This document shows, in pieces, positions 27,325 to 47,972 of a stretch of DNA of 64,000 bases. How positions within the stretch are numbered: the stretch's first letter is position 1; every line of letters begins with the position of its first letter. The stretch is from a virus. The stretch is from the IMG/VR virus record IMGVR_UViG_3300007535_000003, positions 1 through 64,000 of that record, one strand, 5' to 3'. Below the pieces are notes generated by a model. It made no database searches. It was not told the DNA's origin and saw only the letters and a list, made by a program, of their open reading frames with translations. A program made the position numbers and the translations under genes.

Positions 27325-30300
27325 TTATCTTAACCGGTTAAAATTATATTTTCTATCTTCAGTGAAAAACCTAGTTTGAAAGAACTTATCAATAGTTTTC
27401 TCACTCCTTTTCTTATCCTTAACATGTACATTATGTAATTCTTTTTTATACAACATTACCATCATTAATGAAATTACTCGGTCAAAGTTGCCCTTATCGT
27501 TATAAGATATTAACTCATCTAACAATGGTAATGAGAATATTTTCTCCAAATTCTTATGGCCTGGTGAATATTCTTCATTAAGCCAATCTCGTATTTCTCG
27601 TTCAGCCCAATCTTTTATACCTTTAGTCATATGAATACCCTTCTTACGTTGTACCTTAGATACTTGCACAATGTCATGTATAATATCAGGCTGATTAGCT
27701 AACATATAATCAACACCCTTATTAGCAAAATAAGCGTACATACCTTTACGCTCATTCTCGTATAAAGCCCTTGCATTATAGTATTTAAGTAGCCTGTAGA
27801 CATTTTCATAATACTCATTAGCCGTATCTGGTCTACCTGTATATTCAGCTACTATTATATCATAGTACTGTTCAAATGACTGAAATCTTTTATATATAAT
27901 AGTGCTCCCTAAAGAAGAAGTACCAGAATCATCATGGTCATAAGGGTCAATACCAGCTATATATAGACCATACGGAGGATCTTCAACAGGATGCTCCCAT
28001 ATAACTATAGCCCCTTCTTTGCTATCATTTTTATCTAAAGGAAACTTCTCTATATCTTTAGCTCCAGATAGCTGGTTCCACCTTAGTCTACCAGCCCCAT
28101 CATACTCAAGACTACCCACCTGTTTATAGTTTTTCAGCTTCTTATCCCCCATTATCCTAGCTTTCTGTGCCTGTAGTTCTTTCTTAGGGAATATATTACC
28201 AGTCAACTGTAAGGTAGCTTCTCTAGGCGTATTTGGGTGTTCCGCAATATACCTATCTACAGAATTCTTATCACCAGAATGCTCTTCTACCTCCTTACGT
28301 TGCCTATTAGATTCTTCTATAGCTTCATCTATTGAGGAATTACCATCCTCATTCATAAAGCCTTGCATATTCATATAGTTAGGTACAAAAAAGCCACATG
28401 CTGTTTCATAAGCACCATCATCCCATACATTCCTTATAGGTAGAACATTATAAGCCCTAGGTTTATAAAACAACTCTTTTAAGCTAGAATAGTCTGCCTC
28501 TTCTGTATTATGCGTAATTACACCATTACCTAAATAAGTATTAGTATTTGAAGCTGTTAAATTATAAACAGGATTAATACCAGTATGTTTAATAGATATA
28601 ACTTTCTCATGCCTTAGTCCATTATATTTTCTTTGGGGTTTTTTGTCTTTATTATAATCCCAAATATTATTTAATTTTTCTTGCTTATTTTTTATAAGTA
28701 AATTAAAATTTTCAACAAACAAAGTTAAACTTCTACAATCACTGATATTAAATTCATGCCAAGCATTGACATCTTTTGGATTATTATCTCTAGGTTGCCT
28801 GGTTCTTAATTTACCATGTATGCCAAATTTTTGTAATATTAGTTGTAACTCTTTTAATATCTCTAAATTATTTTGGCTCAAACTTATTTCAGATAAATAT
28901 TTACCTTTTCTTTTATTATTTACTCTAAAACTTATATACCCATCAGCATCATACAATCCAGCAACAAACTCTGAAATAGATTTTTTATTCCATTTATGTA
29001 CATCTTTTGGCAATCTTTTATCAGATTTAGTTTGTCCAAATATACCATGATATCTAAGAGTATCATTAAAGTTTAATATACCAGCTTCTTTATATATTCT
29101 CTTATCTTTATTTTCCCTCTCTAAATATACAGCATTGGAATAATTATCATCTATATAATCCCAAAGCTCTTTGTCACAATTAGCAAATTTAGGAGTACTA
29201 TTACCATAAGTACCATCCCCTACTAGCATGCCTAATAGTCTAGCGTCTTCTACCTCTTTATCGCCAAATATTGGTAATTTGTCTATAACTGATATTAAAT
29301 CACCTTCAGCTATATTACCAGCTTCTTTCCAGTCATGTCCTATTATTCTTCTATTCTGCCTTTTGTGATATTTATTCCATCCTTTATCTTTAAATATTGG
29401 AGAATAAATAGGATGATCCGTACTGCACTCTATTGTTCTACCAGAATCAGTAGTTAATTTAATAGTTTCTTTTTCAGTATATGGTTGTTGATAAGCTATA
29501 TCTTCTTTACTATAATTACCAGACATTTCATCAAAACCAATTATACCTTCATTTTTAACTAAATCTTCTATATTTATTAATTCACCTTTATTATTAAATA
29601 CTTTGTTCCCAGCTGTTAAACAACCTCCCGTACCAAAAGAAATCATTGTACCAAAAGCCACACCATCCTGTTCTACCGAAGGTTGAGCTATCTGCCACGA
29701 TTGAAGCAAATTTGGAAATTTACCTGATTCTTCCCAGACAATTAGTTTAGCTGCTTTACCTCTAGCTTTTTGAGGATCATTCTTTAGAGTAACACCTATA
29801 ATTTCAGATTTATATCCCTTCTCTATTTTACTGCCTCCCTTAGTAGTATAGAAAGAAGCCCTTCTATGCATATTGGTGTCTATTGCTTGTCTCTTCTTAG
29901 TCCAAGCTGTATTATCATCTATCCAACTCATCATATCCCAAGCCTTGGACAGTACACCATCTTTCGTTAAAAATTCCTTTTCTGAGGCTATAGCATAAGA
30001 TATCGATTCGGGTATAAGGAAGAAATTTCTATTCAACATTGCAGCAACTTTATACGAATAACCTGACCTACGCTTTTTAAGCACAGCCATATGACTACCC
30101 CTATTTTCTGCTTCTTCTACTGCGTCAAAATACTCCTTATCATAGTCCCAGAAATTTGGAAATCCCCTGTCCCTAGTAGGTATAACCTTAGTACCACCAC
30201 TACCATCAGGAACTTCTTTCTCAACTACTTTCATTATGGGGCAATAATTTAAATAAAAATAGTGATAGCCTGTAATACTATCACCATCTTCAGCAGTAAA

Positions 30301-30465
30301 GCCATCGGTACTACGTTTCATTTCTCTGTCCCAATAACGCTTATATTCTGTAGTACCTGGGGGAGCTGCAGTATACATGCTGTTTTCTTCAAAATACTTA
30401 GCAGCTGGCCTAAATTTATCAGTATTTTTAAATTTTCTAACCCTTACTTCGTATGTATCTTCCAT
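27325..30465 (-). CDS. terL: Terminase large subunit containing an intein
   Basis: LKKRRSGYSY Walker A-like, VWEESG Walker B, YIAGIDPYD nuclease, NFDRV. Confidence 0.93.
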   Translation of the reverse strand: MEDTYEVRVRKFKNTDKFRPAAKYFEENSMYTAAPPGTTEYKRYWDREMKRSTDGFTAEDGDSITGYHYFYLNYCPIMKVVEKEVPDGSGGTKVIPTRDRGFPNFWDYDKEYFDAVEEAENRGSHMAVLKKRRSGYSYKVAAMLNRNFFLIPESISYAIASEKEFLTKDGVLSKAWDMMSWIDDNTAWTKKRQAIDTNMHRRASFYTTKGGSKIEKGYKSEIIGVTLKNDPQKARGKAAKLIVWEESGKFPNLLQSWQIAQPSVEQDGVAFGTMISFGTGGCLTAGNKVFNNKGELINIEDLVKNEGIIGFDEMSGNYSKEDIAYQQPYTEKETIKLTTDSGRTIECSTDHPIYSPIFKDKGWNKYHKRQNRRIIGHDWKEAGNIAEGDLISVIDKLPIFGDKEVEDARLLGMLVGDGTYGNSTPKFANCDKELWDYIDDNYSNAVYLERENKDKRIYKEAGILNFNDTLRYHGIFGQTKSDKRLPKDVHKWNKKSISEFVAGLYDADGYISFRVNNKRKGKYLSEISLSQNNLEILKELQLILQKFGIHGKLRTRQPRDNNPKDVNAWHEFNISDCRSLTLFVENFNLLIKNKQEKLNNIWDYNKDKKPQRKYNGLRHEKVISIKHTGINPVYNLTASNTNTYLGNGVITHNTEEADYSSLKELFYKPRAYNVLPIRNVWDDGAYETACGFFVPNYMNMQGFMNEDGNSSIDEAIEESNRQRKEVEEHSGDKNSVDRYIAEHPNTPREATLQLTGNIFPKKELQAQKARIMGDKKLKNYKQVGSLEYDGAGRLRWNQLSGAKDIEKFPLDKNDSKEGAIVIWEHPVEDPPYGLYIAGIDPYDHDDSGTSSLGSTIIYKRFQSFEQYYDIIVAEYTGRPDTANEYYENVYRLLKYYNARALYENERKGMYAYFANKGVDYMLANQPDIIHDIVQVSKVQRKKGIHMTKGIKDWAEREIRDWLNEEYSPGHKNLEKIFSLPLLDELISYNDKGNFDRVISLMMVMLYKKELHNVHVKDKKRSEKTIDKFFQTRFFTEDRKYNFNRLR
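28507..29622 (-). mobile_element. Intein with LAGLIDADG endonuclease (372 aa) in TerL
   Basis: Starts GTGG|CLTAGNKV and ends GVITHN|TEE (Thr +1); CSTDHPI block B; LLGMLVGDG and FVAGLYDADG motifs. Confidence 0.93.
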
Positions 30466-39957: not shown

Positions 39958-40578
39958 ATGAAAAAAAACTTTAACAAAGAAATAGACATACTTAGACAGC
40001 TTCTCATATATAAGGAAAACTGTCAGTACGAAATGAGCTTAAGACAGCCGATAGGTGACGGACCTATGGCGCTTGTAAGTAGAGCCAGGTATGTTACAGG
40101 GTATATGTCTACAAGGTGGTTTGATCTATTTGACATATACAAAGAGTTACAACTAACAGTTGGTTGGAATTTAAGTGATTTATTAAGTAAAAGCATAATT
40201 GACTTAGGATGTGGAACAGGATTACTTGTAGACTTATTCAGCATAATATTTAAGAAAACTTATGGAATAGAAGCTGATTGGAATCTTTGTAAGATAGCTA
40301 CAATAATGAGGCCTCATCTAGAAATATACAATGGATATGTACAGGAAAGAGTAGACTTAATACTCAGGTTAGATCCTGACATTATTTATGCTTTTAATAT
40401 CACAGGTGAACCAAGAGAAACATTTGATGAGTTATTCAGGAAGATGCGCAAGGGACAAGTATTTGTACATCTAGGGGGCTCAACAGAGATAGAAGAGTTA
40501 ATAGATGAACACAAGTTTAATACATCTAACAAAGAGGAAGATAGGCAATCAGCCAGAGTACTGATAGCTATTAAATAA
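39958..40578 (+). CDS. Class I SAM-dependent methyltransferase
   Basis: IIDLGCGTG, YGIEAD. Confidence 0.8.
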   Translation: MKKNFNKEIDILRQLLIYKENCQYEMSLRQPIGDGPMALVSRARYVTGYMSTRWFDLFDIYKELQLTVGWNLSDLLSKSIIDLGCGTGLLVDLFSIIFKKTYGIEADWNLCKIATIMRPHLEIYNGYVQERVDLILRLDPDIIYAFNITGEPRETFDELFRKMRKGQVFVHLGGSTEIEELIDEHKFNTSNKEEDRQSARVLIAIK

Positions 40579-40596
40579 AACCACAAAATTAAAAAT

Positions 40597-40725
40597 ATGG
40601 ATTGGGAACAATCAAGAGACGAAGATAGAGAATTTGATCCTAATGATGGACAAGATATCTACGGATGCATACTAGGAGCAATTATGTGGATAGCACTAAT
40701 AGCACTAGCGATTTTCTGTAGATAA
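40597..40725 (+). CDS. 42-aa membrane peptide
   Basis: Acidic N-terminus plus TM (GCILGAIMWIALIALAIFC); motif upstream. Confidence 0.5.
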   Translation: MDWEQSRDEDREFDPNDGQDIYGCILGAIMWIALIALAIFCR

Positions 40726-40845
40726 ACCACAAAAATGAAATTGTTAAAAATATAGAGAGATCTTGGAGCCCAATCAGGGCTATCGGCGACGACACGGTGG
40801 TAACCAGCCCATACAGCAGTCGTACTTCAGGTCTCCCTAACTTAT

Positions 40846-40965
40846 GGTCCGTTCGTCTAGTGGTAGGACGCCGAGCTGTTAATACTTTATACATGCACTA
40901 GCTATGTTAGAGTATCAACCATGGTTTGCCCCACGGAAACGGAGGTTCGACTCCTCCACGGACTG
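40846..40965 (+). tRNA. tRNA-like RNA (Glu/Asp-type body) with the anticodon arm extended into a long hairpin
   Basis: Acceptor GGTCCGT/ACGGACT; D-arm GTCTAGTGGTAGGAC; T-arm GGAGG-TTCGACT-CCTCC; about 45-50 extra nt in the anticodon arm. Confidence 0.7.
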
Positions 40966-40970
40966 CTGTT

Positions 40971-41163
40971 AGCCATATAGCTCAAAAGTGTTACACTCAA
41001 GTTCCTAGGAATCGGCTGTAACCCCCAAGGATATGCAGAGGAGAATGGAACTTATTTGGACTTAAAATCCAATCCATTCTAGGCCACCTCACGCAGAGTC
41101 CGAGTAGCGGAAGAGCCCCTAATAAATTATAGGGAGATCTGGGTTCGAGTCCCAGTATGGCTA
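40971..41163 (+). tRNA. tRNA-like RNA with ~120-nt structured insertion in the D-loop
   Basis: Acceptor AGCCATA/TATGGCT; D-stem GCTC/GAGC; CCCTA/TAGGG arm with an 8-nt loop; T-arm CTGGG-TTCGAGT-CCCAG. Confidence 0.7.
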
Positions 41164-41198
41164 CTATTTTTATTTACAAACCACAAAAATTAAATATT

Positions 41199-41366
41199 AT
41201 GTCAGCATTAATTGCATTCCTTGTAACAATGGCATTCCTAAGTTTAATGGGCTATGCCTTATTACCTTACGGGACTAAGGAGGAAGCCTCAACGAGAAAA
41301 GTAGTAGGTATTGTAGCAATTTTAGCTACAGTAGTAATACTAATATTAACTTTAATAATATCCTAA
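41199..41366 (+). CDS. Small two-TM membrane protein
   Basis: Likely start ATG 41199 after the motif. Confidence 0.55.
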   Translation: MSALIAFLVTMAFLSLMGYALLPYGTKEEASTRKVVGIVAILATVVILILTLIIS

Positions 41367-41369
41367 AGT

Positions 41370-41627
41370 ATGGAAAAACGTTATGCCCTTAACAGGGGAG
41401 ACATCTTAGTCTTACTGTTAAATGGGAAGAAAAAGACATTTAGGGTCTTATCCTCAAAAGATAGCATGGGAAAAGACGCCGACAGTAGTAATAAGAAAGA
41501 GCCTTTGGATCTCAATATAAGTAGCGAGCTATTCAAAGAGATCGAAAAGAAACTGCCTGAAGTATTTTTTAAGAAAATCCGATGGAAATCTAACTCAGTA
41601 AGATTATTAAGCGTTAAAAGGAGCTAA
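41370..41627 (+). CDS. Hypothetical protein
   Basis: ORF in operon. Confidence 0.55.
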   Translation: MEKRYALNRGDILVLLLNGKKKTFRVLSSKDSMGKDADSSNKKEPLDLNISSELFKEIEKKLPEVFFKKIRWKSNSVRLLSVKRS

Positions 41628-41630
41628 GAC

Positions 41631-42074
41631 ATGTGGAAATCTAACTCAAAGCAAAGCAAAGACAAAATAAGTAAGGGCAGTTTAGTAATTATTGACATGC
41701 CCGACTTTATTGGAGAATATGTACCTTCAATAAGTAAGGTAGCGTGTAGCTACAAAGAAAAGATGCTACATTTCTCTAATGTTAGCAATGCTTTTGGTAG
41801 CTTATTTGGTGAAGAACACCATTTAATAGAAGTACCAAGAGCAGTCATACTCTATAACAAGACACATTTTCTTAAGAGTGTATTAGAGCTATCTGAAGCA
41901 TATAAAGAAGATAGCTTAGATTCTTTATTCTTTTACGGTCGTAAAATAGTACTACCAGTCCATGAGGGATACTTAATGCCGGTAAGTAAAATAAAGGATC
42001 CACACAAAAGAGGACTATGTTATAGAGAATGGGAAATGTTAAAGACTAAGGGATATAGTAACCTTATAACCTAA
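41631..42074 (+). CDS. Hypothetical protein
   Basis: ORF in operon. Confidence 0.55.
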   Translation: MWKSNSKQSKDKISKGSLVIIDMPDFIGEYVPSISKVACSYKEKMLHFSNVSNAFGSLFGEEHHLIEVPRAVILYNKTHFLKSVLELSEAYKEDSLDSLFFYGRKIVLPVHEGYLMPVSKIKDPHKRGLCYREWEMLKTKGYSNLIT

Positions 42075-42135
42075 CTTAACTAACAAACGATTTACTTACG
42101 CTGCTAGCTAGGGCTTTAGCGGACTCGGGTTCGAT

Positions 42136-42756
42136 CAAAAGGTCGAAGTTAAACTGGGTGAATTCAGGGAAACCTAAGTCACAATGATAAGGCAACCCTG
42201 AGCCAAGCCCTTAAGAGGGAAGGTGCAGAGACTACCTGAATACAGGCTAGAGCGCCCAGCACTTAAAAGTGAAGAGATAGTCCGATACTCCTGAGAAATT
42301 AGGAGAAGAAGCGAGATGTAAATTCTTGACGTTTTGATAAGGTTTCTTTTGTATATTTACCATTACGAGGTGTTATACTCTTCAATTCGTTAAGTATCAT
42401 ATCTATACGTCTACGCTTCTTGGGATGTCTGGAATTTATGTAAGATAGTACGTTTATACATTTAGGTAAATAAGTATACCTCAGCTCATAATTAGTAAAA
42501 TCACCTGATTTTTTAGTACAAATGAATCCATTATGACCTGTTTCAAGTTTAATAAATTTTTCTATTTCCACAAGTAGGTCATATTCGTTATTACTAAAAG
42601 AAATAACAGGTGATCTTTCGCAATTCTTATGTAAACGTAAAAATGTTATCGTGCCGTCAGCATCAAAGAAACCTGTAATATATTCCCAACCCATATTTTT
42701 ATTGAATATACGGACGCAGGTTTGAAATGTTACTGTTCCAGATGTTTTAACTATTG
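42136..42756 (+). mobile_element. Group I intron in the tmRNA T-loop
   Basis: P1 TTCGAT|C-AAAA-GGTCGAA with U:G at the splice site; P3 CTGGGTG/CGCCCAG; P4 TTCAGGG/CCCTGAG; GCAGAGACT and AGATAGTC (P7); P9 CTCCT/AGGAG; terminal G at 42756. Confidence 0.9.
42299..42694 (-). CDS. Single-motif LAGLIDADG homing endonuclease, antisense inside the intron
   Basis: WEYITGFFDADGTI; TPRNGKYT; lies in the intron 3' (P9) region. Confidence 0.88.
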   Translation of the reverse strand: MGWEYITGFFDADGTITFLRLHKNCERSPVISFSNNEYDLLVEIEKFIKLETGHNGFICTKKSGDFTNYELRYTYLPKCINVLSYINSRHPKKRRRIDMILNELKSITPRNGKYTKETLSKRQEFTSRFFS

Positions 42757-42789
42757 TCCCGAAGGCTCCACTTATCTAAACACTGTATT

Positions 42790-42930
42790 ATGAAAGCATT
42801 AAAACTACCACGGAAGGAGAAAAAGAGACGTAAGAAGGAGATACAAAAGTATCTAAGAAATGTTCTTAAGGTAGAAGCTAATACTAAAAACATCCGATTA
42901 TCGGAAATAGGATACAGGCTAGTAAAATAG
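42790..42930 (+). CDS. 46-aa basic peptide in the tmRNA intervening segment
   Basis: MKALKLPRKEKKRRKKEIQKYLRNVLKVEANTKNIRLSEIGYRLVK. Confidence 0.45.
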   Translation: MKALKLPRKEKKRRKKEIQKYLRNVLKVEANTKNIRLSEIGYRLVK

Positions 42931-43168
42931 CCCGTTGCCAATGATAGCAGTAGGGCAGGTGAGGAGAAAATATTATAATTTCACGGAGGTTGGTAACTCA
43001 GGTAGCCCCTGGGGTGTAACCTGCCCTTTGTTTTCAACGTTAAAAATATGGGGCCTAATTGGTTTTGACGTTATGGTACCCAGTTAGCACGAAAGGTGTA
43101 AGTAATTTTTAAATGGCGAATCTGAAATGATGCAATTGCTTAGAGCAGCTGCTTAATCGGTGAGTCTT

Positions 43169-43195
43169 GGGGGACATTAATAGTCCCCCTTTTTC
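43169..43195 (+). terminator. Terminator after the tmRNA coding piece
   Basis: GGGGGAC-ATTAATA-GTCCCCC-TTTTT. Confidence 0.8.
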
Positions 43196-43219
43196 TTTAA
43201 CCATTAAAACTAACCAAAC

Positions 43220-43768
43220 ATGGATAACTTATTTAGGAAGACACTACTCCAAGATCTTAAAGATCAATATTTGGAGTTACGGAAAGACTTCTTTAGGGCT
43301 AAAAAAAGAGGCAACAAAAGGGAAGCAAATTCCCTGCGAGAACAGCTTTCAACACTTTCCGCCTTAATCGGAGAAATTGAGAATATGGAAAAGAAGAAAG
43401 CATCATCCAGCTTTGAAGGAGACAAAAAGTACTTAAGGAAATACTTATTTGATACACTAACTGCTTCTTTGACTGAATCCAAAGATAGTCGTAAAGGTAG
43501 ACTTTTCAGAGATAAGTGTATCAACGAAGTTGCAACTATAACGAAAGCTTCTCATAAGCACTTGTTTGAAGAAGATGATAAGTTAAGTCCAGAAGAGGCG
43601 TATAATATCATTAATACGCTTAGTAAGTTTGGTATGAAGGAATTCAGGGAAAGAATCAGTGAAGCAAGAAAAGACGACAGGGGTAGAGACAGAATTGTCA
43701 AGTTTGTCTTTTCAAATTCACCTGAAGATCGAAATAAAATCGATATGGTGATTAAGAAAGTTCTATAA
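43220..43768 (+). CDS. Hypothetical protein
   Basis: 182-aa ORF. Confidence 0.65.
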   Translation: MDNLFRKTLLQDLKDQYLELRKDFFRAKKRGNKREANSLREQLSTLSALIGEIENMEKKKASSSFEGDKKYLRKYLFDTLTASLTESKDSRKGRLFRDKCINEVATITKASHKHLFEEDDKLSPEEAYNIINTLSKFGMKEFRERISEARKDDRGRDRIVKFVFSNSPEDRNKIDMVIKKVL

Positions 43769-43789
43769 ACCCTGAAAAAACCGATTAAA

Positions 43790-44848
43790 ATGAACAAATA
43801 CAATGCTTCTGCATCGGAATTATTTGATGCAGCCGAATACTTTTACAAAATGGCTGTCCGTTTTGAAGACAGGTATTGGAATCATGGCAACAACCAAAGT
43901 GATATGAGTGCCATGCATATGTACAAACTGAAAGCTGCTGAAGCTGAAAGCTACGCTGAATTGCTTATTCAAGAGGGGTTAAGCAATACCCTAGGATTTG
44001 GTCCTGAATGGATTAAAAAGAATTTTGTAGCTCTTAATCCAGCTAATATTAAAAGTGAGGTAAGTAAAGCTAAAGAAGCTGGTAAAAGTGAAATCCCTAA
44101 TGCTGAAATAGTTAATGATGAAGCTGAATTCATTAGCAAAAAAGTAGGTATGAAATTACGGGAAGAAGAAGCAGCTGTACTTAGCAAAAAAAGGCAAATA
44201 CGTGAAAGTGAACCTCCATTTGTAACTAGCTTACGTTCTGAAATTATAGAACTACTTGAAAAAGGTCTAAGGGGCGAATTGGTTACATTATTAACTAAGT
44301 TCCATTTTAGGGATGTTGAATATCCTGCAGAAAGAGCTTACAGGTTTATCAACTTAGTTAAAGAGCAATTCAATATATTAGAACCCTCAAGTTCTTTAAA
44401 AGAAGCTAAAACAGCCAGAAGGGTAGCTGAACTAAAAACTCAGCTGCTTAATAAAAAGAGAAGAGAATTCAGGAAAAAGTACACTAAAAAGCATGGTAAA
44501 TTGCCTAAGCCCGAATTACTCAATGCTATACAACTAAGCGATCAGGAAATAGCTCCTTTAGTTGAAAAAGCTAATAAATGGGGCACAGAAAAGATACCTG
44601 TAAATACCTATGTTTATGCTAGATACACGGTACATAATTGTAATGGTGTAGATGTAGAAGAGGGCTATGCCAAAAGACATAAGAATAAGCCTAATGAGCT
44701 ATGGCATAGCAATAGGTTTGTATGCTTCTTAAGTGATGTAGAGAAGTGGAGACCTATCTACGATATCATTCACAACAAAGAAAGGGAGATGAAGTGGTAT
44801 TTCAATAACAACCCTGTATCAGGCAAATATCAAAGAAATAAAGTTTAA
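43790..44848 (+). CDS. Hypothetical protein
   Basis: 352-aa ORF. Confidence 0.7.
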   Translation: MNKYNASASELFDAAEYFYKMAVRFEDRYWNHGNNQSDMSAMHMYKLKAAEAESYAELLIQEGLSNTLGFGPEWIKKNFVALNPANIKSEVSKAKEAGKSEIPNAEIVNDEAEFISKKVGMKLREEEAAVLSKKRQIRESEPPFVTSLRSEIIELLEKGLRGELVTLLTKFHFRDVEYPAERAYRFINLVKEQFNILEPSSSLKEAKTARRVAELKTQLLNKKRREFRKKYTKKHGKLPKPELLNAIQLSDQEIAPLVEKANKWGTEKIPVNTYVYARYTVHNCNGVDVEEGYAKRHKNKPNELWHSNRFVCFLSDVEKWRPIYDIIHNKEREMKWYFNNNPVSGKYQRNKV

Positions 44849-44863
44849 CCTAAGTAACATATT

Positions 44864-45388
44864 ATGTCAAAAAGTAAAAAAGAAAGAAACACTTCACACG
44901 ACGCAATAGAGTTAATACTCGTAAGCGTGCGTATCAACGAGCTCAGGAGCTTAAGGTTACGGTTATTTAACGACATTTATTTAATACGTTCAACCTGTCA
45001 AAACTCCAAGTTTACAAGAGCTTCTAGTACTATCAACAATATGAGTTTACTCATAAGCGAGATAGATGCTAGAAGAAAAAGCTTAACAAGGAGAAGTAGA
45101 TCCTTGATGGTAAGAATGATTAAGCTAACCAATAAAACATTTCAAGAAAAACCATCAGAGCTAGTGCCCTTACACAATAAAGATATTGAAACTGGGTATG
45201 TAGAACTGACGGAAGTAACTGAACAAGGTGAACTTATACCCCATTTACTACTACTTGATAGTGGTAAAATAGAACCAGCTAACAATGTAAGAGCTAAACA
45301 GATCATGGCAAGAGGTCCCAGCTATACCGGGTTCACCTTCGATAAAATAAAAGCCTTGGCTATAATGTCTGAAACCTGGCCAAGGTAG
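44864..45388 (+). CDS. Hypothetical protein
   Basis: 174-aa ORF. Confidence 0.65.
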   Translation: MSKSKKERNTSHDAIELILVSVRINELRSLRLRLFNDIYLIRSTCQNSKFTRASSTINNMSLLISEIDARRKSLTRRSRSLMVRMIKLTNKTFQEKPSELVPLHNKDIETGYVELTEVTEQGELIPHLLLLDSGKIEPANNVRAKQIMARGPSYTGFTFDKIKALAIMSETWPR

Positions 45389-45390
45389 CA

Positions 45391-46690
45391 CATAATATTT
45401 TTTGTGGTTTGAGTCGATTTAGGTGCGAGCCTATTTCGGCTTCAATTTTTGTAGCAGTTCTTGAGAGAACCTTCACCCTACCGCCTTTGGATTCGGCAAT
45501 GTTGGGAATACCAAGGACAATGCCTACTACCTATTAGCTACTCAATATCTACAAAACTACTCTCCTTATGAAGTATCCTAGGAAGATGGGTTCCAATTAT
45601 TGATTTAAGCGCACTCTGAGGAACTGGCAGACCCGATGGATACATTAAGGTAAATAGGTCTAACGCAACCCATGGTCAAATCCGTACTCTTAAGTGTGTG
45701 GGTATTACCCTTAAGAGCTTATGCATGCTCGCACTTCCCTTTACGAAAAGGTTGAACTAAGAAGTAACTGAATACGGGGCTGTATATACTGTATACAGTG
45801 GGGCTGGAAACACCAGAAGACTACGATGATGCTACCTAGTAAATAGGCCAAGTGAACACTTAACTTTGAATTAAGTTAGTAACGGGGGGTCCAAATTCCT
45901 TAGAGTCGTTGTATAGACCTTGAGTACCGAGTACAGAGTAGATAATTTATCCCCCAGTAAAGTGGTGTAGTTCAAGCCGCAGTAGCGAAATATGAACTGT
46001 CGTCTGTGATTTCGGCTGGGGTAAGAGGAGGAGGGATGGATACGTGTGCTTCACCGTTTGTATGGTAAGAAGCTACATGTTATACGCCCTAGCCAAGATC
46101 TGAAGCATGAATCGTCAAGTTGGGGCTTAGGAATAAGTTTGATAAATAGCCTGCGATAGGTCGCAATCCCTATCAGTTTCAACCATCGAGTAATGTGGAG
46201 GATACATACATCAATGAGGCGGTAATGCCGCCCAGTATCATGGTAGTGCGCTTTATAACTGATGCAGCCATTTCCAGTTATATTTGCTTGGAGCTACTTA
46301 TGATGCGATACTCTGTAGGACAGAGGGTCTTTAAACTTAGCAGGTAACCGTAAGTGTGGAGAACAAAGTTAAGTCCCTAGAGTAGAACAGACCTCTAACA
46401 GTTCTACAAAATTCAAATAGTAAACAAGGGTTTACAACGGAGCCGTTAGGCTGTTGTATAATATATACCCAAATAAATGTCAGTGTATTTCTTGCCTAAC
46501 CACAGCAAGAGACTGACTAATAGTGACTATAAGAGTATTAAGCTAAGGAGGTTGTGAGTGGATGTGGTTCATGAGGTACCAAGTGCATTTTAAAAGCTTG
46601 GGTGGATGACTTCATTGAATCATAGCTTAATATTAAGTAAGGAAATAGGACTGGGGCTTAAGAAAGTCCCAGCTCCCCAGTCCTTTTAAA
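45391..46690 (+). ncRNA. Large structured non-coding region (one or more ncRNAs)
   Basis: 1.3 kb without a 60-aa ORF in any frame; GC-richer; many hairpins, GNRA loops and long-range complementarities; ends in a terminator at 46647-46687. Confidence 0.65.
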
Positions 46691-46700
46691 CTATTAAAAA

Positions 46701-47015
46701 ATGAAGGTAAAAAAGTATAAATATCTAATACCTATAATAAGCATAAAAGCTGAAGGTACCTTAGTACATTTGATACAGCGCAATATTCTGTACAAAGCTA
46801 AAAAAGTACTAGGGATCAAAATACCAATAGAAAAGATCTTTCAAAAAGACAGGGGGATCTCAGCTTGGAAAGAGACAGCGGGTCATAAGCAGACTAAATG
46901 GAGAATAGTCTACATAAAAGATGAAGATAATAACATCAGATTAGGGCCCGTTATTCAAGACAAGAAACTTTTAAAGTTTTTAAACAAGATTACTAACCAA
47001 AATTATGCAAAATGA
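46701..47015 (+). CDS. Hypothetical basic protein
   Basis: 104-aa ORF. Confidence 0.55.
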   Translation: MKVKKYKYLIPIISIKAEGTLVHLIQRNILYKAKKVLGIKIPIEKIFQKDRGISAWKETAGHKQTKWRIVYIKDEDNNIRLGPVIQDKKLLKFLNKITNQNYAK

Positions 47016-47512
47016 AAAGAGGAGCTAGCAAACCCAGTAGTGTTTTATCGCTTGGAGAAATAGTATATTTTCTACAAGAAGAGGTTGTAGACAATGACAA
47101 CAAGTTGATAAGGACTACCTGGTATGATCCAAAGGGTATAAGAGTAGTATCTGTTGTCTTAGACGGCAACAAAGTTGTAGTAAATCGAAAAGATATCGTC
47201 GAGTCTATTATGTCTAAAGGAGAGATAGAAGGAGACCATAAGATATTTGAAATGTCTTTCGATATCAACAAAGAATCGATTTACACAGACAAAGATTCCG
47301 CAATAGAAGATGCGTGGGATCTCAATGAGAAGTCCCTGGAACAAAACAGGTATGCAGTATCTGAAAAGAAAAAGGAGTTATCTGACCTTGAAGAAAAAGT
47401 TAAAATGGTCAAAGTTCAGATAGATGCTGGAAATAAAGTATCTCAATTTCTCGAAGATTGGCTTGAAAAATTAGGTGATGGGGAAACCTACACTGATGAT
47501 CAAGCTGTTTAA
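47012..47512 (+). CDS. Hypothetical protein
   Basis: 166-aa ORF. Confidence 0.6.
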   Translation: MKRGASKPSSVLSLGEIVYFLQEEVVDNDNKLIRTTWYDPKGIRVVSVVLDGNKVVVNRKDIVESIMSKGEIEGDHKIFEMSFDINKESIYTDKDSAIEDAWDLNEKSLEQNRYAVSEKKKELSDLEEKVKMVKVQIDAGNKVSQFLEDWLEKLGDGETYTDDQAV

Positions 47513-47549
47513 CCTTAAGAATTATTAACCAACTAAACAATTTAAAAAA

Positions 47550-47972
47550 ATGGCTAAAAGCAAAAAGAAAGTACAAGATGAAGTACAGGAACAAGAAACT
47601 GCAACTACAGTGGAAAATGAAGCTACAGAAGCTTCTGGTTCAGACAACACCCAAACTGCTAACGCTGAGGATGATACGGTCTTTGGTACGGTAGTATGGA
47701 ACGACAAAAAGAAGAAAGGATTTGGTTTTATCCAGATGGATGGTGAAAAGCAAGAAGAAGGTAATGATATCTTTATGCACCATTCCCAAATTATGGCTTA
47801 CAAAGATGGTAAGGTACCAAATCTTGAAGCTGGTGATAGGGTATCCTTTATACTTGTAGATCCCCCGGAGAGCAATAGCAAACAAAAACCTATTGCTTCT
47901 GAAGTAGTTCTCGAGGAAAAAGCTCCCAAAGAGGATAAACCCAAAGAGGAAAGCAAATCTGAAAATAAGTAG
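47550..47972 (+). CDS. Cold-shock domain (CspA-like) protein with acidic extensions
   Basis: GTVVWNDKKKKGFGFI (RNP1), DIFMHHSQI (RNP2), LEAGDRVSF. Confidence 0.85.
   Translation: MAKSKKKVQDEVQEQETATTVENEATEASGSDNTQTANAEDDTVFGTVVWNDKKKKGFGFIQMDGEKQEEGNDIFMHHSQIMAYKDGKVPNLEAGDRVSFILVDPPESNSKQKPIASEVVLEEKAPKEDKPKEESKSENK

Follow-up and report, generated by a model that had tools for sequence, protein, structure and literature searches.

Transfer-messenger RNA (tmRNA) occurs in a standard form, a permuted form, an intron-bearing form and two forms that lack a coding sequence, according to the accessible part of PMC11915505. Permuted tmRNAs (Rfam family RF04321) are found in Alphaproteobacteria, Betaproteobacteria and cyanobacteria, and the segment that intervenes between their two pieces is removed by tRNA-processing enzymes (PMC11915505). 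The same source describes intervening sequences with cargo, one containing an intact tRNA-Ala gene and one containing a 1152-bp gene with a repetitive element, and places tmRNA introns in the T-loop, mostly at position 7, with a homing endonuclease gene (HEG) located after P9 in 4 of the first 23 HEG-bearing tmRNA introns (PMC11915505). Here we describe a tmRNA gene in a 64-kb stretch of viral DNA (the window), which is the first 64 kb of the 97-kb virus record IMGVR_UViG_3300007535_000003, and in particular the 279-nt intervening segment, or spacer, that lies between the two pieces of that gene and contains a short open reading frame (ORF) and a hairpin. What we consider new is a phage two-piece tmRNA gene that combines a T-loop intron with a long composite spacer, in a group of phages that very probably uses the spacer as a slot for cargo. 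The explanation that we favor overall, with a probability of roughly 0.5, is that this variable slot holds a composite filling in the window, made up of a lineage-specific gene for a basic peptide and a closed hairpin.

Comparison of the window gene with the closest described systems reveals a mixture of shared and distinct features. Like the tmRNAs of RF04321, the window gene has the order acceptor piece, spacer, coding piece, together with a T-arm, a G3:U70 pair, a discriminator A and a tag frame. Unlike them, it is borne by a phage, its spacer is 279 nt long rather than approximately 24 nt as in the consensus and carries an ORF and a hairpin, its acceptor piece is split by an intron, it does not encode CCA, and its fold shows no evident pseudoknots. 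Like the intron-form tmRNAs, it has an intron in the T-loop, located after loop base 6, with a U-G pair in P1, a terminal G and a LAGLIDADG gene after P9, whereas its permuted order and the antisense orientation of the endonuclease gene set it apart from that form. Phage tRNA clusters contain small ORFs among stable-RNA genes that are excised from a common transcript by RNase P and other nucleases, and phage morons have a gene-plus-hairpin layout. The window ORF would resemble both as a small accessory gene among RNA genes, and it differs from both in lying inside one RNA gene, between halves that pair with one another. With respect to the cargoes reported for intervening segments, the window spacer is similar in that foreign sequence resides in a discarded segment, but the reported cargoes are RNA or repeat, whereas ORFs are found in the spacers of the window and of the related loci L206 and L354 (PMC11915505, accessible part; L numbers designate related loci).

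None of the tmRNA forms in the accessible part of PMC11915505 is both permuted and intron-bearing, that part mentions no protein-coding spacer cargo, and the accessible text of its supplement has no rows labeled as phage. A full-text search of one paper collection returned no relevant report of protein-coding spacer cargo or of a permuted tmRNA gene with an intron, and the crAss phage papers that were searched for tmRNA mention it solely through a citation of ARAGORN. The linker of permuted tmRNAs, treated as a short discarded piece, is here the most variable part of a conserved gene, and the slot that it forms takes hairpins, a T-arm-like piece and ORFs, one of which is a conserved gene. If these ORFs are expressed, an mRNA would mature from a stable-RNA precursor by way of tRNA-processing enzymes. 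Standard tmRNA finders miss genes that combine a long spacer with a T-loop intron. The ORF and hairpin in the window are unproven, so the value of this locus lies mainly in the pattern to which it belongs and in the ease with which it can be tested.

Layout of the tmRNA gene

The two pieces of the window gene (Table 1) were cofolded after in-silico splicing of the intron. The cofold contains a T-arm, a 7-bp acceptor stem with a G3:U70 pair (G43052 with T42767) and a long P2, and pseudoknots are not evident in it. The characteristics of the tRNA-like domain of RF04321 are all present, namely a 5-bp T-stem, a 7-nt T-loop, a 7-bp acceptor stem, a discriminator A and an upstream location of the 3' strand. 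The acceptor 5' strand (from 43050) comes after the 3' strand, an order that makes this a circularly permuted gene. No CCA is encoded after A42770, and the 5' end of the acceptor piece at 42075 is approximate, with the stop codon of an upstream ORF at 42074. An earlier model-made description of this DNA, the sequence-only reading, had placed a spacer of about 280 nt between two tmRNA halves. The distance is 279 nt, between A42770 and G43050, and the cofold and the relatives described below support the identity of both halves.

The tag encoded by the coding piece is GESEMMQLLRAAA, which consists of 13 codons followed by a stop. Its first codon is GGC, as in the tags that ARAGORN calls in relatives (GNNFVTDYTQLAVA, GNTFVTDYTALGAA), and its Ala-Ala-Ala end matches the tags read in L012, L005 and L109. 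A sequence-only model was built from the coding pieces of 9 relatives, with the window left out, and when it was compared with the 64-kb window it produced a single match, at 43051-43156 with an E-value of 4.6e-4.

Standard searches do not report this gene. ARAGORN found no tmRNA in the window, where it called only a tRNA-Lys, and likewise found none in the in-silico spliced copy of the gene. Rfam gave no tmRNA match in the window at the gathering threshold and none over 40500-43600 at E<=10, RF00023 had no match in the whole record, and the gathering threshold of RF04321 (47 bits) is not reached by the window gene. The reason that neither RF04321 nor ARAGORN reports the gene is that its T-loop, and with it the T-arm, is interrupted by a group I intron of 621 nt. 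Given the T-arm halves that flank an intron scoring 97 bits, the cofold, the match to the nine-relative model, the resemblance of the tags and the relatives that pass RF04321, we are nearly certain that this is a real two-piece (permuted) tmRNA gene. Its predicted product is a tmRNA processed into two base-paired RNAs, charged with alanine and active in trans-translation.

Permuted tmRNA genes in related phages

A search with a 21-nt 5' motif recovered viral and metagenome contigs (L012/L004, L005, L001 and L109) that have the same layout and no intron, and the RF04321 scores of L012 and L109 are 64.7 and 64.3 bits, respectively (cut-off 47). We also kept 80 loci from contigs with a major head protein 59-86% identical to that of the window. 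An RF04321 search of 37 of those records gave 8 matches with E<=2e-9 and scores of 46.1-59.3 bits, 6 of which are above the cut-off. ARAGORN called a permuted tmRNA in all 5 of the relatives from this set on which it was run, with tags starting at Gly; of five other intron-free relatives it missed 3, and its tag for L012/L004 differs from the one read from the sequence. A pattern scan of metagenomes yielded 2 permuted tmRNAs among the 119 matches listed, as judged by a screen and inspection, the rest being chance or one-piece matches. A second scan yielded 16 by filter among the 120 loci listed, with spacers of 19-258 nt. The acceptor stems covary among the relatives and the G-U pair is kept, with the 5' strand ending in CTG, GAT or AAT in relatives and in CCT in the window.

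Other RNAs accompany some of these genes. RAGATH-9 (97-99 bits) or RAGATH-22 (185-192 bits) is found near the tmRNA in L205, L206, L207, L229 and L231, approximately 0.7-1.5 kb upstream and on the same strand, and a tRNA for which ARAGORN reports a two-base anticodon follows the tmRNA in L205, L231 and nine of the L354-L368 loci.

The spacer as a variable slot

We compared the spacers of related loci in 15 pairs chosen because their tmRNA pieces are alike. In 10 of these, the acceptor pieces are 87-98% identical and the coding pieces are 83-99% identical, whereas the spacers of these same 10 pairs align at only 25-48%, which is noise, and have lengths of 17, 63, 99, 135 or 216 nt. Among the loci listed, the spacers of relatives range from 17 to 258 nt, and the shortest, of 17 nt, are those of L207 and L232. 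When spacers of at least 40 nt were clustered, at least 16 unrelated families were found among 23 loci. The window spacer has no family match among the clustered spacers and shares only matches of at most 12 nt with others. Because the spacers diverge in both sequence and length between conserved tmRNA pieces, we regard it as very probable that these crAss-like phages use the spacer as a variable slot for cargo. The intervening segment needs only about 17 nt, and otherwise it behaves as a replaceable cassette between conserved arms. The sequence-only reading had stated that the intervening segments of permuted tmRNAs are usually short, in agreement with the RF04321 consensus loop of about 24 nt and the 17-nt spacers of the shortest relatives, and had described the window spacer as carrying cargo. 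The idea of cargo holds as a pattern of the group, in which the slot is hypervariable and contains a conserved gene in L354, and it is unproven for the ORF of the window.

Many of the slots are filled with structured RNA. The fold z-score is -1.9 or lower for 12 of 19 representative spacers, and, as read by eye from the folds, an end-to-end stem closes most of the ORF-less ones. Many ORF-less spacers consist of one closed hairpin, whose stem is 1-9 nt from the discriminator at one end and 2-10 nt from G1 at the other. Visual reading of the folds identified L205, L250, L310, L320 and L264 as examples of this arrangement. The 99-nt spacers of L229, L230 and L364 contain a T-arm-like element with a 5-bp stem and a 7-nt loop of the TTCGACT type. 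Neither Rfam nor ARAGORN makes a call on this element, which resembles part of a tRNA or part of a second acceptor piece.

Other slots contain ORFs. Among the loci listed, 4 of the 8 spacer families of at least 130 nt have an ATG-initiated ORF of 38-79 codons that starts 4-20 nt past the discriminator (Table 1). The ORF of L206 is found only in its own genome among the 31 phage records searched, and the spacer of L365 is that of L206 with one extra base upstream of the ORF. The 73-codon ORF of L012 takes up the entire spacer and runs on into the coding piece, the first bases of which belong to its stop codon, such that RNase P cleavage would be predicted to strip this ORF of its stop.

The ORF of L254/L354 has a different standing. 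It belongs to a family of 9 homologous clusters with 51-94% identity, represented by 15 loci in IMG/VR, and the ratio of nonsynonymous to synonymous substitution rates (dN/dS) is 0.16-0.29 for four full-length pairs and 0.63 against the truncated copy of L368. The L354 spacer ORF is a real gene under purifying selection. Members of this family (79-81 aa) are found just after the tmRNA and a tRNA in 11 of the 15 loci; among the remaining loci, one has only a coding-piece motif upstream, two lack a tmRNA, and L354 has the gene within its spacer. In L354 the usual site of the gene is taken by a 35-aa hydrophobic ORF, and the usual downstream neighbor is still present. The L354 gene has a mixed amino acid composition and ends 2 nt before the coding piece, with no hairpin. 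The surrounding tmRNA has a compensated acceptor stem and is called by ARAGORN; its RF04321 score of 36.4 bits (E 8e-5) is below the cut-off. L354 is like the window in that an ORF occupies the same slot, starts at a similar offset (20 nt in the window, 17 nt in L354) and is preceded by an A/T-rich leader. The two differ in that the window ORF is without relatives and 119 nt of structured RNA come after it, whereas the L354 gene fills its slot without a hairpin.

Contents of the window spacer

The two elements that the sequence-only reading had pointed out in the spacer, a Lys/Arg-rich ORF of 46 codons and a structure closed by complementary arms, were both found (Table 1). The ORF, which runs from an ATG to a TAG and is nested in a listed 58-aa ORF with a TTG start (42754-42930), encodes a peptide with 17 Lys and Arg residues, 4 Asp and Glu residues and a pI of 10.9. 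Its codon log-odds are 0.254 per codon, exceeding those of 70 of 70 spurious ORFs, and those of five small neighboring ORFs and the downstream 182-aa gene are 0.13-0.30. Frame 0 is the best of the three frames, with a margin of 0.87 bits per codon, and the spacer ORFs of L206 and L354 have a similar start offset and a similar A/T-rich leader.

The 9-nt arms of the hairpin, located by a repeat search at 42952-42960 and 43019-43027, are 100% complementary and 58 nt apart, and the T-rich run beyond them occupies 43028-43035. The hairpin is of modest stability, with a fold z-score of -2.34 for 42940-43049, where 3 of 200 shuffles fold as well; for 42773-43049 the z-score is -2.81, and 1 of 200 does. 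A scan for terminators scored 43011-43027, with its T-rich tail, as terminator-like. An intrinsic terminator would have a short loop, whereas the arms of the 9-bp stem enclose 58 nt, and the T-run can pair in an extended stem. No Rfam family matches 42771-43049 at E<=10, which is the outcome of a search that the sequence-only reading had proposed for the hairpin, and neither ARAGORN nor Rfam makes a call that would support the 76-nt hairpin as a tRNA. In architecture, and not in sequence, the window hairpin is like the closed hairpins that fill the slots of relatives. We put the chance that it has a structural or processing role at about even. Our reading of the spacer is that it is composite, with an ORF module followed by a hairpin module, in which 119 nt of structured RNA extend from the ORF to the coding piece.

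The main rival to a coding filling is that the spacer is non-coding filler, that is, a lineage-specific insertion or a recombination scar in a discarded segment. The ORF would then be a chance product of the A-rich sequence, and the hairpin would be incidental or would only compact the precursor. We consider this a serious possibility that falls clearly short of an even chance. A number of observations weigh against our favored reading and speak for this one or temper the coding evidence. An ATG ORF of at least 46 codons appears on the plus strand in 90 of 5000 and 31 of 2000 dinucleotide shuffles of the spacer (1.6-1.8%) and on either strand in 359 of 5000 (7%), and the ORF region is 48% A, in which DNA of this kind tends to yield open frames rich in Lys, Glu and Arg. 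Among spurious ORFs, 10% have a frame margin of at least 0.87, and the window ORF is at the 13th percentile of true gene fragments. Conservation, which the sequence-only reading had named as the test of the ORF, was not found: among 5.8 billion clustered proteins the ORF retrieves only itself (the clustered set assigns it to 3 contigs), a HMMER scan of 1.84 billion representatives likewise matches only the ORF itself, and it is present in 0 of 37 related phage records. Its Pfam matches are all below the cut-off and include neither SmpB (PF01668) nor an RNA-binding family, and its top scores in the ESM Atlas, at most 0.80, are at the level of shuffled proteins. AF2 predicts a single helix, which is uninformative, as any peptide rich in Lys and Glu gives the same result. 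In the relatives, ORFs do not exceed 14 codons in the other 4 of the 8 long spacer families, spacers of 17 nt are enough in L207 and L232, and the frame of the L012 ORF is not intact in L109, although the last 125 nt at the 3' end of the spacer are common to both loci. Because the L012 frame is not kept in L109, spacer ORFs that are significant by shuffling can be non-coding. Finally, we infer all of the processing steps set out below from sequence.

On the other side, the codon log-odds of the window ORF are above those of every spurious ORF and within the range of the neighboring small genes, the correct frame is also its best frame, L354 has a conserved gene that occupies this slot and starts at a matching offset, and the phage is densely coded, with 83% of it in ORFs of at least 100 aa. 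Relative to chance, the 46-aa ORF and the hairpin are unusual, but not overwhelmingly so. We rate translation of the ORF, as judged from its sequence, at slightly under an even chance; the product would be a strongly basic, predicted helical peptide encoded by a lineage-specific small gene. Other copies of the window spacer were not found, as no relative in the collections searched has the same spacer and a search of the phage's own genome returned only the spacer itself.

Table 1. Positions of features of the tmRNA locus in the window, and spacer ORFs of related loci
Feature	Position	Strand	Details
Acceptor piece, exon 1	42075..42135	+	long P2 strand, GGAC, T-stem 5' strand 42125-29, T-loop bases 1-6 at 42130-35; from in-silico spliced cofold
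Group I intron	42136..42756	+	621 nt; in T-loop after loop base 6; terminal G42756
LAGLIDADG-type homing endonuclease ORF	42299..42694	-	131 aa; antisense within intron, after P9
Acceptor piece, exon 2	42757..42770	+	T-loop base 7, T-stem 3' strand 42758-62, acceptor 3' strand 42763-69, discriminator A42770
Intervening segment (spacer)	42771..43049	+	279 nt; between discriminator A42770 and acceptor 5' base G43050
Basic ORF, no known relatives	42790..42930	+	46 aa; ATG 42790, TAG 42928-30; start is 20th base after discriminator
Small 8-bp hairpin	42914..42935	+	spans ORF stop codon; in minus-strand terminator scan and minimum free energy (MFE) folds
Extended closed hairpin	42942..43036	+	MFE fold; core is perfect 9-bp stem 42952-60 / 43019-27
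Coding piece	43050..43195	+	acceptor 5' strand 43050-56; tag frame 43115-43156; intrinsic terminator 43169-89
L206/L365 spacer ORF			38 aa, very acidic; length reached in 4/2000 shuffles
L012/L005 spacer ORF	L012:285-510		73 aa; length reached in <=1/2000 shuffles
L254=L354 spacer ORF	L354:701-940		79 aa; length reached in 0/1000 shuffles

Proposed processing and further alternatives

Under the favored reading of a composite filling, the whole unit would be transcribed as one precursor that extends from the upstream genes to the terminator at 43169-89 (end 43189). A single precursor is the simplest arrangement because the candidate early-start motif AACCACAAA is absent from the plus strand over 41187-47700 and because no strong terminator is found nearby other than the one after the coding piece. 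The intron would be spliced out, and the acceptor stem (P1) and P2 of the tmRNA would form around the spacer. RNase P would then cut 5' of G43050, and the tRNA 3'-end machinery would cut after A42770 and add CCA. We propose this order of processing because it is established for permuted tmRNAs (PMC11915505, accessible part). The freed spacer would be a 279-nt RNA consisting of a 19-nt leader, the ORF and the 3' hairpins, and the ORF, if expressed, could be translated either from the precursor or from the excised RNA. The 3' hairpin might keep the spacer compact, allowing the tmRNA ends to meet, and might shield the 3' end of the upstream RNA; it might also act as a weak terminator or as a nuclease (RNase III) site. 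The 46-aa peptide would most likely be an ordinary early accessory protein that is sited here by chance and not a dedicated tmRNA factor.

A broader proposal, which we hold only as a speculation with the odds against it, is that phage two-piece tmRNA genes are expression slots. Genes in the spacer would be cut out as small mRNAs by RNase P and 3'-end enzymes, so that accessory proteins would be produced in step with the tmRNA and would need no separate promoter, and the slot would be refilled by recombination between the tmRNA halves. The basic peptide would be one such product, possibly acting on ribosomes or RNA in host takeover.

A different arrangement would be two separate transcription units, in which the hairpin and T-run (42952-43035) terminate an upstream transcript that contains the acceptor piece and the ORF, and transcription of the coding piece is started by a separate signal in the last bases of the spacer. 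The terminator-like site at 43011-43027 with its T-rich tail, the perfect GC-rich 9-bp stem followed by a T-run, and the canonical intrinsic terminator that ends the coding piece would all fit such an arrangement. However, the hairpin ends only 14-22 nt short of G43050, the scan scored no promoter-like site in that interval, AACCACAAA is absent, the T-run is paired in the extended fold, and the 17-nt spacers of relatives leave no space for a terminator and a promoter. We therefore consider separate units improbable.

The sequence-only reading had also suggested that the peptide might bind the tmRNA or the intron, and that a small RNA would be released from the spacer. As a dedicated tmRNA partner or intron chaperone, standing in for or helping SmpB, with the hairpin released as a functional small RNA, the filling is very improbable: the pI of 10.9 and the single long predicted helix are a form common among RNA binders, the phage has no SmpB gene, and the intron shares a 15-nt complementary match with the ORF, but the peptide has no similarity to SmpB or RNA-binding families (its Pfam matches are sub-threshold and none is SmpB-like), relatives with the same kind of tmRNA lack the ORF (0 of 37) and have unrelated cargo or none, the other spacer ORFs encode a very acidic 38-aa peptide and a mixed 79-aa protein that is normally outside the tmRNA gene, and the hairpin has no Rfam family. 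We found no evidence that links the peptide to the tmRNA or the intron. The absence of an SmpB gene, noted earlier for the window, extends to the whole 97-kb record (PF01668; the control was positive in 12 of 14 genomes).

The group I intron and its endonuclease ORF

The intron in the T-loop matches the Rfam family Intron_gpI (RF00028) with 97.3 bits and an E-value of 6.9e-24, with the core at 42153-42305. In P1, 42130-35 pairs with 42142-47, and a U-G pair is found at the 5' splice site. We set the intron ends from the T-arm halves, and Rfam puts P1/P2 further upstream; splicing in silico at these ends restores the 7-nt T-loop. The intron is predicted to be self-splicing. The region 42075-43195 combines permutation and a T-loop group I intron in one tmRNA gene. 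In a blastn search of a phage collection, the intron core was the sole match.

The antisense ORF within the intron matches LAGLIDADG_1 in Pfam with an E-value of 4e-4 and 21.6 bits, just below the 23.1-bit cut-off, and LAGLIDADG_3 with an E-value of 1.7e-3. A promoter-like site for this ORF was scored at 42733-42705, in the 3' end of the intron, and no close relative of the encoded protein was found in IMG/VR. The end of the intron (42741-42755) and the middle of the spacer ORF (42880-42894) form a 15-nt, 87% complementary inverted repeat, which could be due to chance or could represent pairing that competes with splicing. The possibility that the spacer ORF is exon 2 of the upstream gene was ruled out, as the exons of the intron are the two T-arm halves.

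The phage and its gene neighborhood

The virus record is 94% complete and contains crAss-type major head, portal and terminase genes; the source of the window is a crAss-like phage. Its ORFs of at least 100 aa account for the 83% coverage given above. Close relatives could not be found in IMG/VR by means of the neighboring proteins encoded at 43220-43765 and 43790-44845, and the five closest large relatives, with major head proteins 68-75% identical to that of the window, do not have the tmRNA 5' motif.

Among the 50 ATG ORFs of at least 150 aa in the whole 97-kb record, 41 end in TAA, 9 in TAG and 0 in TGA. The record seems to avoid TGA, both as a stop and in frame, which may reflect a suppressor tRNA or a host that reads TGA differently. 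Reading TGA as Trp gives no convincing additional plus-strand ORF in the spacer.

Upstream of the tmRNA gene, Rfam matches a tRNA at 40846-40965 (44.6 bits) with a 51-nt insertion in the anticodon loop and a second tRNA at 40971-41163 (30.4 bits) with a 126-nt insertion in the D-loop region. ARAGORN calls neither of these. Insertions of this size cannot accommodate a group I intron, and their folds are unremarkable. Elsewhere in the window, the terminase large-subunit match (27325-30465, minus strand) covers only residues 651-1031 of a 1046-aa ORF, and the N-terminal half of this ORF has weak primase- and helicase-like matches.

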